Source: Nanobdellota archaeon | GTDB taxonomy: Archaea; Nanobdellota; Nanobdellia; Woesearchaeales; CAZZGN01 | Length of the DNA stretch: 55,049 bases | Direction of reading: 5' to 3' | Assembly (NCBI GenBank): GCA_051819665.1 | Contig: JBNJDG010000004.1 | Coordinates: forward strand, 1 to 55,049 | Shown: one piece after another, positions 8,163-45,881 of the stretch | Numbering within the stretch: position 1 is the first letter of the stretch | Layout of the letters: each line of letters starts with the position of its first letter | Program-made: the position numbers and the translations under genes | The notes under the pieces: generated by a model | Database searches by the model: none | Told to the model about the DNA's origin: nothing | What the model saw: the letters and a program-made list of their open reading frames with translations, nothing else

Positions 8163-8405
8163 AATCAAATCACACCTCCTTTTTTTGTGTAAAAGTCACT
8201 ATAAGTTACTATATTCAGGTTTCTTTATTGTAATCTTGCTCTTAGTAGTGTTTTAAGTATATTATATGTGTTGTCATTAATATATTTTTTGGAATATCGG
8301 GGTAAAACAATCATCTGAGAATATTTTCTTTGTTTTTTAACTACTTCCAAGTGCATAAAAACATTCAAAAAACATGCGTTGAAGAAATAATGCAAAAGAG
8401 AAATA

Positions 8406-39980: not shown

Positions 39981-41918
39981 ATGAAATACAGAGGTCTTGA
40001 ACTTGATAAGTTCCAGGAAGAAGCAATAAGCCATATAGATGAGGACAAGTCAGTTATAGTCTCGGCCGGTACAGGCACGGGCAAGACGCTCATAGCTGAT
40101 TACCTTATCGAGAAATCCATCAATGAAGGTAGCAGGGTCATCTATACGAGTCCTATAAAGGCGCTCTCTAACCAGAAATTCAAGGATTTCAAGGCACTCT
40201 ATGGGGATAAGATCGGCCTTCTTACAGGTGATGTGTCCATAAACGAGGATGCCCAGATATTAATAATGACGACTGAAATCTACAGGAATATGCTCCTCTC
40301 TAAGGATCCTATATGTGATACGATATCTTATGTTATCTTCGATGAGATCCATTATATAAACGATATAGAAAGAGGCACTATCTGGGAAGAATCGATAATC
40401 TTTGCGAGCTCAAACACGAAGATGCTTGCTTTAAGTGCTACAATCCCGAATGCGAATGAGTTAAGGGACTGGATATCCTCCCTGAGACCCGAGGAAGTCG
40501 CTCTGGTCTATTATGAAGACAGGGCTGTGCCGCTCAATCATATGTTCTTCGAGCATTTCAACGGGCTTATGGAAAGGGAGGAGATGCCCAAGAAGATAAA
40601 AGAACTTAAATCATACGCAAGGCATTCTCCCGGTAAGAAAGGGAAAAAGAAGAAACCGAGGCTTCACAGTCCGGAGATAGCAAGGAACCAGTTCCTTGAT
40701 CTTGTGCATGAGCTTAAACAGAAGGAATGGATGCCCTGTATATTCTTCTCTTTCTCAAGGAAGACATGCGAGATGAAAGCTGATAAGGTAGCAAAGAAGA
40801 TGAATCTTCTCAGTAAGGAAGAGAGGACCAGGGTGGCAGAGATAATCCCTAAGTACATAACAGCTGAAGCCTCTCACCTGAAGAGTGTGAAGCTTGTAAG
40901 GAATGCGTTGATGAAAGGAGCAGGTGTGCATCATGCAGGGATCCTGCCTGCTGTCAAGGAACTGGTAGAGCATCTGTTCTCTGAAGGCCTGGTGAAGGTC
41001 CTTTTCGCTACAGAGACCTTTGCAGTAGGTATAAACATGCCTGCCAAAGCAGTCTGTTTCTCCTCGATGGAGAAATTCGATGGGATAAGTTTCAGGCATC
41101 TTACGACGAAGGAGTATTTCCAGATGGCCGGCAGGGCCGGAAGGAGAGGTATAGATAATGTAGGTTATTCGATTGTCCTCCTCGAACCTGACTTCGCTGA
41201 TACGAAGAAACTGATGTATATAACTGAGAAGGACAGGGACCCTATCAGGAGCCAGTATACTTTGTCTTACAACACTACTGTGAATCTTCTGAAATATCAG
41301 GATGAAAAGACTATAGAGAAGATCCTGAAGAGTAATTTCGGTTATTTCGTGAAGAAGAGGCAGGAGAACCAGGTAAGGATCATGTCCTCTTACAAGAACC
41401 AGCTCAAGAGGCTCAGGAAGCTGGGATGTATAGACAATCAGAATAACATACTTGAGAAGGGCGAGTTCATGTCCCATATTTATTCTGATGAGGTGCTCAT
41501 GACAGAGCTTGTATATAGTGGGGTCCTGGATGAGCTTTCCGCCGAGGAGATAAGCATAGTCATAGCCTCGGTCGCTTATGATGGCAAGAAGTCCGATCAT
41601 TTCTCCTTCAGGGGAGTTGATAAGGAATATTCCAGGTTGATAAAACTGCTTTCAAAGGATAAGGTGATCGAGAAGAACATAAACAAGTTGTCTGTCAAGA
41701 GGATGATCAATGTTGTCATGAAATGGAGCGAGGGCTGTGATTTCCTTGAGCTGATGGAATACAGCAACCTTGCAGAGGGAGATCACATAAGGCTTTTCAG
41801 GCAGATCATAGACAGGATCCAGCAGCTGATAAAGGCAGGAGTCTCTGTAGAGCTCGAGGAGAAACTGGTGAAAGCTATGAATCTCCTGGATAGGGATGTG
41901 GTCAAGGTAGAGTTTTAG
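39981..41918 (+). CDS. Ski2/HelY-like DEIH-box helicase with DSHCT-type C-terminus
   Basis: LDKFQ, AGTGTGKT, PIKALSNQK, MTTEIYRNML, FDEIH, LSAT, HHAG, ATETFAVGINMPA, QMAGRAGRRG, EGD.IR. Confidence 0.93.
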   Translation: MKYRGLELDKFQEEAISHIDEDKSVIVSAGTGTGKTLIADYLIEKSINEGSRVIYTSPIKALSNQKFKDFKALYGDKIGLLTGDVSINEDAQILIMTTEIYRNMLLSKDPICDTISYVIFDEIHYINDIERGTIWEESIIFASSNTKMLALSATIPNANELRDWISSLRPEEVALVYYEDRAVPLNHMFFEHFNGLMEREEMPKKIKELKSYARHSPGKKGKKKKPRLHSPEIARNQFLDLVHELKQKEWMPCIFFSFSRKTCEMKADKVAKKMNLLSKEERTRVAEIIPKYITAEASHLKSVKLVRNALMKGAGVHHAGILPAVKELVEHLFSEGLVKVLFATETFAVGINMPAKAVCFSSMEKFDGISFRHLTTKEYFQMAGRAGRRGIDNVGYSIVLLEPDFADTKKLMYITEKDRDPIRSQYTLSYNTTVNLLKYQDEKTIEKILKSNFGYFVKKRQENQVRIMSSYKNQLKRLRKLGCIDNQNNILEKGEFMSHIYSDEVLMTELVYSGVLDELSAEEISIVIASVAYDGKKSDHFSFRGVDKEYSRLIKLLSKDKVIEKNINKLSVKRMINVVMKWSEGCDFLELMEYSNLAEGDHIRLFRQIIDRIQQLIKAGVSVELEEKLVKAMNLLDRDVVKVEF

Positions 41919-42493
41919 ATATCAGAGAGATCTTCCTTTATCTTTTCAATATTTCCTGGCTCTGCTTTTATGACTTTCATCCCTAGTTTTTCAGCTTCTT
42001 TGATGTTATGTTCGCTGTCATCTATGAAAACAGTATCTTCAGGTTTTTCTCCGAATCTCTGCAGGACATCATTCAGGTTGCCGGGTTTGAGCTTTCCTAT
42101 GTCGAAGGAGAATACCTCATGGTCAAAATGTTTTCCTAAACCTAATCTATCGGCAATTCCGGCAGTGAATACATCCGTGTTGGAAAGAAGGGTTTTCGTA
42201 TCTTTAATCGAAGACAGGAGATCTTCAGCTCCCTCGTATGCTTCCGCTTTCCTTATACCCTCCGAGAAGACAGAGCAGACAAAATCTATATTCTCCTCTG
42301 TCTCCTTTATGCTGAAGGCTCTTAAATAAGAAGCTGCTAGGTCTTCCATGGTCCTGAACCTTTTCAGCTGGACAGCTTCTTCATACTTCCTGATGTAATC
42401 TTCCTTTTTCTCTATACCGAAGTGTTCCCTTAATGTAGAGGATATACCAATGTTCTTCTTCGCCAGCGTCTTCCAGAGATCGAAGATTATCAT
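41915..42493 (-). CDS. HAD-family hydrolase
   Basis: IIFDLWKTL, LLSN, KP, FIDDS..NI..A..LG. Confidence 0.88.
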   Translation of the reverse strand: MIIFDLWKTLAKKNIGISSTLREHFGIEKKEDYIRKYEEAVQLKRFRTMEDLAASYLRAFSIKETEENIDFVCSVFSEGIRKAEAYEGAEDLLSSIKDTKTLLSNTDVFTAGIADRLGLGKHFDHEVFSFDIGKLKPGNLNDVLQRFGEKPEDTVFIDDSEHNIKEAEKLGMKVIKAEPGNIEKIKEDLSDI

Positions 42494-42544
42494 CAGTAAT
42501 TCCTGTTTTAAAGGGTTATTTAAAATCTTTGATGTTTTGAGAAA

Positions 42545-42706
42545 GAAAGAAGAGGAGGGCTATAGTCGAGATCAAGAGGTGTGATCATGAGGCGAACTGA
42601 ACCAGGGTCTCGATTGGGGGGAGGTGTGATCTTCCCTGGTTTCTCTCGGCTGAGACCATGCAAATTCCTTTACAAGCTTTTCAGCATATAGGCCCTCCTC
42701 TTTCAT
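42545..42706 (-). ncRNA. Candidate stand-alone structured sRNA with two loop-displayed anti-SD motifs
   Basis: Own TATA (TTTATAAA, 42735-42728), 11-bp closing stem (42550-42560 with 42692-42702), two copies of GAUCACACCUC, U-rich 3' end. Confidence 0.55.
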
Positions 42707-42803
42707 ATTATCCTCTTAGGTAATTTTTTTATAAATACGTTATTCAACTCAGATAAAGACCTGAATTTCATAAAATTTAAAAATGGTAAACATACGTTAA
42801 CCC

Positions 42804-43466
42804 TTGATGGATGTTTTATGTATCTTACCGGACTGGTTCCTGGGTTATGGTATGCTGCTTGAGTTCATCTTTTTCCTGTTAGCAGCGTTTATAGCTTTCT
42901 ATTCATACAGGGTTTACAAGATCACCAAAAGGAAAGATGTAAAGAATATATTCATAGCTTTCATAGCTTTTTCCTCTTCTTATCTGATTCAGTTCCTTGC
43001 GAATGGTGTTTTTTATATTGATAATAATCTGATGCCTCTGGAGACTATATTACTGAAGACTTTACCGATGTATATATATTTCATCCTGTACATGTTTGCA
43101 TTGGTGACTTTAGCTTATGCCGTTCTAAAGCCTAAGACAAGCAGGTTTTATTATCTTTTCCTGGCTGTGGTATTGATAGGCATATTCATGGCACAGAGCC
43201 CGGTATTGGTTTTCAATCTGTTTTCTGTGTTGATACTTCTTTATACAGGGGCATTTGCTTTTTATAATTATTATAGGGGGAAGAGAAAGAATAATCTGAT
43301 GTTTGTAATATTCATAATCCTGCTTTTCATAGGCAAGCTTCCTTTTGTTTTTTCAGGAAGGATATGTACATGTTCGATCATCCAGCACATTATGTTCTCT
43401 TTCGCTTATGTGATACTTTTTACTGTGCTTTTTATGGTAATGAGATATGGGTTCGAAAAGAAGTAA
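42804..43466 (+). CDS. Multi-pass (~7 TM) membrane protein
   Basis: About seven hydrophobic segments; overlaps the downstream wHTH gene. Confidence 0.75.
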   Translation: MMDVLCILPDWFLGYGMLLEFIFFLLAAFIAFYSYRVYKITKRKDVKNIFIAFIAFSSSYLIQFLANGVFYIDNNLMPLETILLKTLPMYIYFILYMFALVTLAYAVLKPKTSRFYYLFLAVVLIGIFMAQSPVLVFNLFSVLILLYTGAFAFYNYYRGKRKNNLMFVIFIILLFIGKLPFVFSGRICTCSIIQHIMFSFAYVILFTVLFMVMRYGFEKK

Positions 43467-45019: not shown

Positions 45020-45835
45020 TCAGAGGAATTCTTTCAGGGATTTGTATCTCTTAAGCATATTTTTTCCTTTCTTGAGGTAATAACCGATCAATTGGGGTTT
45101 AACATCAAATTCTTCTGCAATACCTGCCATGGATGATTCGTATTCGCCGATACCATAGAACTTTCTGAGAGTGTATGCTATGTTCTCATTCTTTTTGGCA
45201 ATATCCTCCAGAGCCGATTCCAGCCTTGCTTTTAGATGATGTTCGTCCAGTCTATGTCCGGGAACTTCGAAAGTTTCATTAGGTAATCTCTCCTCATAGG
45301 TTCTCTCGTTGCCTAATCTATGGTCTATGTACCTGGCCTTGAGGGGAACTTTGTGATCTTCTGAAACCGAATGTTCGGGTACGTCGCTGAGAAGTTCATG
45401 AGTAAGGGACTCAACTTTTTCTGAATTCTCTTTTAAAGACCTTTGTTTATTCTTTGGTATCCTTATTGCATTGGTCTGGTCCCTTACGTATTCTATGATT
45501 GATGCCCTTATATTCCATACTGCATAGGATATGAATTTGAACCCTCTTGTCTCATCAAAGCTTTCTGCAGCCTTGATGAGGCCTTTGTTACCCTCATTGA
45601 CCATATCAGATAATGGAGCGTTCTCATGCCTGTATTGTTTTGCTATTGATACTACGAACCTGAGATTTGATTTTATTAGTGTCTCTTTGGCCTTTTCATC
45701 ACCCTTCTTTAACCTATATGCAAGTTCAGACTCCTCTTCAGGCTTCAATAAAGGGTATTTCTTGATTTCGTTGATATATTTGTTCAGTATGTATCCGTTG
45801 TTCAACGGCCTTTCCTGTATCTTTATCTGTCTCAT
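45020..45835 (-). CDS. Bacterial-type RNA polymerase sigma-70 (RpoD/RpoS-like) factor
   Basis: Region 1.2 LNKYINEI..YPLL..EEE.EL; region 2 NLRFVVSIAKQY..LSDMVNEGN.GLIKAAE.FDETRGFKFISYAVW; IRIP; degenerate region 4. Confidence 0.92.
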   Translation of the reverse strand: MRQIKIQERPLNNGYILNKYINEIKKYPLLKPEEESELAYRLKKGDEKAKETLIKSNLRFVVSIAKQYRHENAPLSDMVNEGNKGLIKAAESFDETRGFKFISYAVWNIRASIIEYVRDQTNAIRIPKNKQRSLKENSEKVESLTHELLSDVPEHSVSEDHKVPLKARYIDHRLGNERTYEERLPNETFEVPGHRLDEHHLKARLESALEDIAKKNENIAYTLRKFYGIGEYESSMAGIAEEFDVKPQLIGYYLKKGKNMLKRYKSLKEFL

Positions 45836-45881
45836 CAAGTAAGGGTGTGTTAACTAGATTAATAAAGATATCGTTTTTTGT

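Follow-up and report, generated by a model that had tools for sequence, protein, structure and literature searches.

A folded minus-strand intergenic element as a candidate anti-ribosome-binding-site small RNA in a Nanobdellota archaeon

A 310-nt intergenic gap (42494-42803) in a 55,049-nt contig of a Nanobdellota archaeon (GenBank assembly GCA_051819665.1; the whole contig, C4 of the assembly, is referred to here as the window) holds an element that we regard as a credible, though unproven, candidate for a small RNA (sRNA) directed against ribosome-binding sites (RBSs). The gap lies between a HAD-family hydrolase gene on the minus strand and a frame for a seven-transmembrane (7TM) protein on the plus strand. 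We consider it quite possible, if short of probable, that it encodes an independent, highly folded minus-strand RNA which would base-pair through exposed loops resembling the 3' tail of 16S rRNA, and which is possibly dual-function. The candidate draws on one genome, on predictions and on one strand-blind contig from an RNA library.

The sequence features that a preliminary description of the window had listed for the gap are all present as it placed them. An 11-bp inverted repeat, AAGAGGAGGGC at 42550-42560 and GCCCTCCTCTT at 42692-42702, is 100% complementary with its arms 131 nt apart, and between them an 11-nt direct repeat, GAGGTGTGATC, occurs at 42576-42586 and again, 45 nt away, at 42621-42631. 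The second copy is flanked by the arms of an 8-bp stem, AACCAGGG (42600-42607) and CCCTGGTT (42634-42641), and a TATA-like TTTATAAA is read on the minus strand at 42735-42728. Both copies of the direct repeat are preceded by TCGA, which is consistent with a 45-nt duplication. Across the genome we count 67 perfect inverted repeats of at least 11 bp with spacers of 30-200 nt, against ~46 expected from an arithmetic estimate, and in our crude gene map 39 of the 751 gaps reach 300 nt, the median gap being 55 nt. No feature alone exceeds chance, whereas the stem, the repeat, the length of the gap and the promoter combined do so.

The promoter was recognised with an 18-nt matrix trained on 32 distinct sequences upstream of stable-RNA genes (the 32 tRNA genes found by ARAGORN and the genes for signal recognition particle (SRP) RNA, 5S rRNA and RNase P RNA). 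The 60-70 nt upstream of these genes carry an A-rich B recognition element (BRE) followed by TTTATAAA or TATTTAAA, the matrix consensus is AGAAAATTTTATAAAGAA, and a fraction of 3.5e-4 of positions scores 10 or more. Measured from the first base of each matrix hit, ATGs that open a long frame cluster sharply at 37-38 nt, with 97 and 93 of them against a background of 15.5 per position. An ATG stands at one of these two distances for 190 of the 709 promoter hits, where ~31 are expected, and 166 of the 190 open frames of at least 80 codons. This sharp spacing indicates that the organism translates mostly leaderless mRNAs and that the matrix can predict transcription starts with one- or two-base precision. 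Shine-Dalgarno (SD) sequences are used by a minority of genes: of 447 GAGGTG words, 61 precede a start by 5-7 nt, and the reverse-complement control has no such peak. This SD-led minority of starts includes the archaellum and pilus genes. The archaellin mRNA is apparently leadered, a promoter site scoring 15.9 on the minus strand of contig C38 (~2190-2241) giving it a 5' untranslated region of ~51 nt, with the predicted start at the ATG of a 21-codon frame that runs into the archaellin RBS.

On the minus strand of the gap the matrix scores 11.2 at 42727-42744, where AATAACGTATTTATAAAA forms a BRE/TATA that includes the TTTATAAA noted above. The transcription start predicted from it falls at 42704-42706, 38 nt from the matrix hit and on the ATG of a 44-codon frame. 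To the left of the element (42200-42560) no plus-strand promoter site is found, the best score being 3.5, and the minus-strand direction assumed in the preliminary description is thus favoured over the plus. The same near-palindromic TATA, read in the opposite direction on the plus strand, scores 9.5. The 7TM frame has a site of its own at 42769 on the plus strand, which scores 15.9 and lies 38 nt from the ATG at 42807, and the HAD gene has a weak promoter-like site (7.2) at 42533 on the minus strand, 40 nt from its ATG. T/C-rich runs are found 3' of the stable-RNA genes, and the C/U-rich tract CUUUCUUUCUC, directly after the closing stem of the element (42539-42549, minus strand), resembles those after the 5S, SRP and tRNA genes and is a candidate terminator. 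Past the stem, four or more consecutive U are first met at 42525-42522. From the promoter-like site and this tract we infer the strand and the ends of the transcript: the gap would house its own minus-strand transcription unit, in which the BRE/TATA at 42744-42727 would start an RNA at ~42706 that extends over at least 168 nt to the C/U-rich tract (42549-42539), with a part of the transcripts continuing toward the HAD gene.

The predicted minimum free energy (MFE) of the minus-strand RNA is -52.9 kcal/mol (z = -2.94), a stability reached by none of 200 shuffles and greater than that of the first 171 nt of 163 of the 166 leaderless mRNAs (mean -38.3, standard deviation 7.4). The fold is a four-way junction. 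Its closing stem pairs a 5' arm at 42692-42702 (minus strand; AAGAGGAGGGC in the RNA; pair probabilities 0.52-1.0) with a 3' arm at 42550-42560 (GCCCUCCUCUU), and in the MFE fold it is lengthened by 4 bp (CUAU/AUAG) beyond a 1-nt bulge, so that the junction would be shut by an 11+4-bp stem. The first of the three hairpins (42649-42685, minus strand, as are the other two) is predicted in both the MFE and the centroid structure. The second (42593-42648) has the 8-bp stem AACCAGGG/CCCUGGUU and carries one copy of the repeat, GAUCACACCUCCCCCC (42631-42616), in its loop. The third (42566-42590) consists of a GAUCA/UGAUC stem with a CACCUCU loop and holds a 17-nt stretch, UCAUGAUCACACCUCUU, that is complementary to gene start regions. 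This placement of both repeats in loops agrees with the preliminary description, and in the ensemble the CACCUC cores have probabilities of being unpaired of 0.93 in the second hairpin and 0.99 in the third. As predicted, then, the RNA has unpaired pyrimidine-rich loops complementary to SD sequences, as an anti-RBS RNA should.

The loops closely resemble the anti-SD end of the ribosome. The 3' end of 16S rRNA reads GGAUCACCUCCU in all four of the relatives that have a 16S gene, and the repeat, GAUCACACCUC(C/U), corresponds to this tail with an insertion of AC. The RNA would present in its loops two single-stranded look-alikes of the tail, of the form (GAU)CACACCUC(C/U). Read on the plus strand, the text of the third hairpin is that of a complete start region. 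Positions 42574-42590 (AAGAGGTGTGATCATGA) are identical, 17/17, to the RBS and ATG of the phosphoglycerate kinase (PGK) gene on contig C9 (blastn-short E 0.009; Pfam PGK, E 1e-120), and 42572-42590 matches the archaellin start on contig C38 (Arch_flagellin, E 9.5e-30) at 18 of 19 positions. A pilin-like gene on contig C52, whose Class III signal peptide match of 19.4 bits is under the Pfam cut-off, has two blocks in common with the same text, one of 11 nt and one of 8 nt, including ATGAGGCG. The genome has three copies of TCAAGAGGTG, one within the element and one each at the starts of the archaellin and pilin-like genes. Of the 664,128 pairs that loosely defined start windows form, 21 have a 17-mer in common, and 18 of these are duplicates between contigs C1 and C10. 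Only three pairs remain, which makes the PGK match unusual, with p of roughly 0.005-0.01; PGK and the filament genes are not paralogues. The likeness of the plus-strand text of the 3' hairpin to a duplicated filament start suggests that the RNA may derive from an inverted copy of the 5' end of a target.

Complementarity to start regions is moderately enriched. Perfect matches of at least 10 nt are found in 13 of 1,111 distinct start windows, against 6.3 +/- 3.0 in approximate dinucleotide shuffles (n = 200, the controls throughout for complementarity; 8 reach the observed count) and 6 for the opposite strand. For at least 11 nt the count is 6 of 1,111 against 1.7 +/- 1.5 (3/200 reach it; opposite strand 1), and for at least 12 nt there is no excess (1 against 0.42 in shuffles). 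By duplex energy, a 40-nt segment with the 3' hairpin reaches -25 kcal/mol or better with 33 windows, where 20 shuffles gave 1-23, and the other loop does so with 8 windows (0-7 in shuffles); a scan with the whole RNA was uninformative, being dominated by the polypyrimidine tail. The best duplexes are those with the pilin-like gene (-33.1), PGK (-32.4) and, at rank 8, archaellin (-30.2). The 14 filament-class genes, drawn from 11 Arch_flagellin and 8 Class_IIIsignal matches, pair better than the rest (Mann-Whitney p 0.0017), and three of them are in the top 33 (p 0.007). Judged from its sequence, the RNA would have a generic anti-RBS potential, and its lean to filament genes and PGK is suggestive and non-significant.

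The preliminary description had proposed a translational repressor of leadered mRNAs, the major fibre subunit among them. The moderate enrichment at start regions speaks for the first part of this proposal, but the fibre target is at chance level. Its RBS was placed at 8169-8179, and GGAGGTGTGAT does sit 5 nt upstream of the start region of a gene for a 297-aa product (8162-7269), though the match is one that chance would supply. The product has no Pfam family, so that its label of major fibre subunit is unverified.

Any regulation by the element, and any target of it, we infer from these complementarities. The loops, and above all the 3' hairpin, would pair with the SD region and AUG of the leadered mRNAs, which are the minority in this archaeon, the best-matching being those of PGK, archaellin and the pilin-like gene, and the pairing would block binding of the 30S subunit. 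With an AUG at the 5' end of the RNA, ribosomes may read the 44-codon frame too, and the element would then be dual-function with translation in the secondary role.

Parts of the 4-kb stretch about the gap are found in five metatranscriptome runs that come from two salt-lake studies; the four runs of one study (X1-X4) were compared as contigs. In X4 a strand-blind contig of 214 nt (depth 9.5, no differences, bare flanks) covers 42465-42677. The element is present in an RNA library and can be continuous with the 5' end of the HAD gene. The expectation that it would be found in RNA is thus borne out, but not that of a discrete RNA of ~160 nt, since the contig continues past the U-rich end into the HAD gene. 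The body of the HAD gene (42112-42262) is covered in X2 without the element, and the element in X4 without the body of the HAD gene, both at low depth; this is a weak indication against strict coupling of the two.

A number of observations weigh against an independent regulatory RNA. The X4 contig ends 29 nt short of the predicted start and runs 29 nt into the HAD gene, and runs X1-X3, which include the two with the best cover of the neighbouring genes, cover parts of the helicase, HAD, 7TM and winged helix-turn-helix (wHTH) genes and not the element, although such holes in contigs prove nothing and we conclude no silence from them. The plus strand folds nearly as stably as the minus (z = -2.64), and folding therefore leaves the strand unfixed. 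A closing stem of this kind is a ~2% chance event per 310-nt gap, the direct repeat is comparable, and the region was picked in the preliminary description owing to the stem and repeat themselves. There is no 16S gene in this metagenome-assembled genome, so that its anti-SD sequence is taken from relatives. The 11-nt match at 8169-8179 is unremarkable given that ~0.5 of the 103 GGAGGTG sites are expected to continue with TGAT. The best duplex energies do not beat the best of the shuffles (-26.3 to -35.4), the lean to filament genes fades when only SD-led genes are considered (p 0.13), and genes with signal peptides are not enriched among the 33 predicted targets (9/33, p 0.16). With no homologue in relatives or collections there is no conservation or covariation, and in the only genome of the same family (G001) the 7TM gene adjoins a helicase gene, with neither the HAD gene nor the element. 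Finally, an ATG at 37/38 nt has a chance of ~4% and 44 open codons one of ~7%, which on these estimates gives jointly less than 1% and favours translation; as the transcript would start with an ATG at leaderless spacing, a purely non-coding reading is unsafe.

The searches for relatives on which the absence of homologues rests covered sequence, structure and neighbourhood. As expected in the preliminary description, no Rfam family matches at gathering score, and relaxing the threshold to E 10 adds only three chance matches, to eukaryote (animal) families. A blastn search with 201 nt against 60 relatives returned only AT-rich chance matches, of which the best spans 31 nt of the promoter part (E 4.5e-4). 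Over 100 relatives, a covariance model built from the single sequence (163 positions, 51 pairs) recovered only itself and one match at E 0.38. The motif GAGGTGTGATC N25-55 GAGGTGTGATC was met in 95 metagenome, 20 genome and 2 viral stretches, all of them unrelated tandem repeats. Of 301 genomes of the order, 106 have a match to the 7TM protein, at no more than 32% identity (the tally counts the present genome, G000, and the unpublished genome G182, on which no claim rests), and a metagenome scan with this protein confirmed no close relative; the HAD protein has matches in 76 of the 301, with 41% identity at best. The lineage is thinly sampled. The 7TM gene and that of a Ski2-like DSHCT helicase are neighbours in both members of the family, with differing orientation (locus L019, G001:C3, against 39981-43466 of the window).

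Several other identities were considered and rejected. The element is not the 5S, SRP or RNase P RNA, each of which has its gene elsewhere in the genome. A C/D-box sRNA is not supported, as inspection by eye of both strands found no RUGAUGA (the nearest being GUGAUCA and AUGAUCA) and CUGA spacings of 9 and 18 nt, against guides of about 12 nt in that class. Nor is it a repeat, a miniature inverted-repeat transposable element or another mobile element, being present in a single copy in the genome and having no match in phage or plasmid collections. A type I toxin-antitoxin system is rejected because neither small frame has a hydrophobic stretch of transmembrane length. Among 69 gaps of at least 250 nt no sister element was found; the two others with two SD/anti-SD hexamers are ordinary starts missed by the crude gene call.

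A minor though real probability attaches to the view that the element is functionless, a decayed tandem scrap of a filament-gene start lying in an AT-rich divergent promoter region, with stems formed by chance and with background transcription. This would suit an orphan in every search that is absent from the same-family genome, whose stem and repeat are each near chance level, whose near-palindromic TATA scores 9.5 on the plus strand too and whose RNA cover is low and patchy. The plus-strand text is moreover like the starts of the pilin-like and archaellin genes, and it shares with the former ATGAGGCG, coding for MRR in both. A scrap would have to have gathered by coincidence the promoter spacing, the enclosing stem, the exposed repeats and the 17-nt PGK match within 170 nt, and to have been kept in a gap of 310 nt where the median is 55 nt. 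A pseudogene remnant was rejected, as a six-frame tblastn search against the organism's own genome found none.

We think it unlikely that the gap simply encodes a 44-residue protein in leaderless form, with fold and repeats either incidental or serving to tune its own translation. The frame, MKEEGLYAEKLVKEFAW...DHTS (42572-42706, minus strand), is one of the two small open reading frames named in the preliminary description, both of which exist, and it is possibly translated. Its ATG lies at the predicted transcription start, 38 nt from the promoter site, which is the modal leaderless spacing, and frames of 40-79 codons begin at 12 of the 190 ATGs with a distance of 37/38 nt, where ~2.5 are expected, most of these frames looking like real small proteins. 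Both repeats are in frame, 15 codons apart. The first 22 codons are coding-like, with a score of 0.40 per codon where real coding windows have a mean of 0.41 (5th percentile 0.11) and shadow frames one of -0.13. The second half, which holds the repeats, scores -0.24, however, and the whole frame scores 0.07, the lowest of the 12 and below the 5th percentile of coding windows; nine of the other eleven lie at 0.39-0.81. The 5' end is not open either: the first 20 nt have a mean probability of being unpaired of 0.22, against 0.56 +/- 0.14 in 166 leaderless genes, of which one is as low. In bacteria, one determinant of leaderless initiation is how accessible the start codon is (PMC8459731). No homologue of the 44-aa product was found among 5.8 billion clustered proteins, and a search of 1.84 billion representative proteins gave one match (E 3.5e-4), which spans 18 residues of a repeat-rich protein of 300 aa. 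Such a gene would also leave the perfect copy of an RBS and ATG on the opposite strand unexplained.

It is distinctly unlikely that the element is a structured 5' leader of the HAD mRNA, with a leaderless upstream frame, that acts in cis on the HAD gene. The X4 contig, which is unbroken from the element into the first 29 nt of that gene, the weakness of the HAD gene's own promoter site (7.2) and the lack of a U4 run between the stem and 42525 would all be understandable for a leader. On the other hand, the element and the body of the HAD gene are covered in separate runs (X4 and X2, at low depth), and the HAD gene has a TATA-like site of its own at a distance of 40 nt from the ATG, which is in the leaderless range, while only a weak AGGA precedes that ATG. 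By reading, the anti-SD loops find no good partner at the HAD start, and neither CACCTC nor GAGGTG occurs within 330 nt upstream of the five best HAD homologues (33-41% identity). A plus-strand mRNA that encodes the 34 residues of the frame at 42587-42691 is highly improbable, for although AAGAGGTGTGATC-ATG is a textbook start region in this genome and shares 17 identical nt with that of PGK, a transcript using this strong RBS would be without a promoter (best plus-strand score 3.5 in 42200-42560), the codon score (-0.16) is what non-coding frames typically show, the product has no Pfam family match, and the second RBS-like copy has no start codon after it.

If the element is indeed an independent RNA that pairs through its 16S-tail-like loops, it would have functional counterparts in Gram-positive bacteria and in archaea. 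In RsaE/RoxS and RNAIII of Staphylococcus, C-rich unpaired loops pair with the G-rich SD regions of several mRNAs, and RNAIII, which also encodes a small peptide, is dual-function. The element differs from these in belonging to another domain of life, in having no Rfam match, and in a motif that reaches the GAUCAC of the 16S tail, beyond the UCCC type. Among archaea, loop 2 of sRNA154 of Methanosarcina mazei carries an anti-RBS sequence that masks the RBS of glnA2, and sRNA41 is proposed to mask RBSs inside polycistronic mRNAs, according to a review (PMC5867862). These two sRNAs are like the element in being intergenic, in their stably folded stem-loops and in the masking of RBSs, which for the element is proposed. 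They are conserved across Methanosarcina and were tested in vivo, whereas the element is an orphan known from sequence; the two sides have no sequence or Rfam relationship, and the element is set apart by its AUG start, its mostly leaderless DPANN genome and a motif present twice as a near-copy of the 16S tail. The M. mazei spRNAs are described as short transcripts which serve as templates for small proteins while also being annotated as sRNAs (bioRxiv 10.1101/2025.10.28.685009, PMC11456600). In the case of the element, by contrast, codon usage and the buried 5' end argue against efficient translation. The element has no sequence membership in any of these sRNA families and would join the same functional kind.

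Among the top matches listed by literature searches we found no description of a regulatory base-pairing RNA in DPANN archaea, which is not proof of absence. Should the proposal hold, the element would be such an RNA in a DPANN archaeon, and an organism with two modes of translation would be seen to regulate one mode of initiation as a class, by mimicry of the anti-SD tail that the ribosome itself carries. A possible connection with archaellin and pilin start regions would tie the RNA to motility and attachment, which are central to episymbiotic life. Plant microRNA genes are thought to originate from their targets. It is a speculation, and an improbable one, that in a similar manner a single RNA with two 16S-tail decoys was born by inverted duplication of a filament start, and that it silences SD-led messages (for archaellum and pilus subunits, surface proteins and PGK) while sparing leaderless ones. 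As a single-genome candidate without conservation, the element has its worth as a well-defined, testable hypothesis. Of possibly more immediate use in annotating such genomes are the promoter matrix, the spacing of 37-38 nt and the list of leaderless small frames. Besides the frame in the gap, this list holds eleven more of 48-77 codons, all placed precisely at the promoter spacing (contigs C1, C2, C5, C7, C8, C11, C12, C22 and C29), most of which are likely real unannotated small proteins, several of them zinc-ribbon-like or coiled-coil-like.

The genes that border the gap can be described in part. The HAD-family hydrolase gene (41915-42493, minus strand; Pfam Hydrolase, E 4.5e-14) has FDLW in place of the usual DxD in motif I (MIIFDLWKTL). 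The same FDLW is common to its closest homologues (loci L158-L160: IIFDLWSTM, IFDLWGTL) and so marks a HAD subfamily without the second catalytic Asp. The 7TM frame, which begins beyond the gap with the ATG at 42807 on the plus strand, is without a Pfam family and is followed on the same strand by a winged-helix gene (HTH_45, E 2.9e-19). The preliminary description had suggested that this 7TM and wHTH pair may control the element; for this only the divergent promoters, ~25 nt apart, speak. A 13-nt direct repeat (85% identity) is present at 42730-42742 and 42787-42799, both copies with ATACGTTA; one coincides with part of the minus-strand promoter, and the second falls in the interval from the TATA to the start of the 7TM gene. 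Possibly the adjacent wHTH protein uses this repeat as an operator, but the match is short and near chance level.

The assembly comprises 1,120,464 bases (1.12 Mb) in 64 contigs with 43% G+C and is 96% complete with 4.45% contamination. It holds an archaeal SRP RNA, RNase P RNA and 5S rRNA, each on contigs other than that of the window, from which the source organism is an archaeon. Contigs C1 and C10 have 18 identical start windows and also duplicated tRNA-Ser flanks; the long segments common to them could reflect duplication in the assembly or a variant strain, and could explain part of the 4.45% contamination. A 272-aa protein encoded on the minus strand of the window at 45020-45838 has matches to bacterial Sigma-70 region 2 (E 7e-16) and region 1.2 (E 3e-9).

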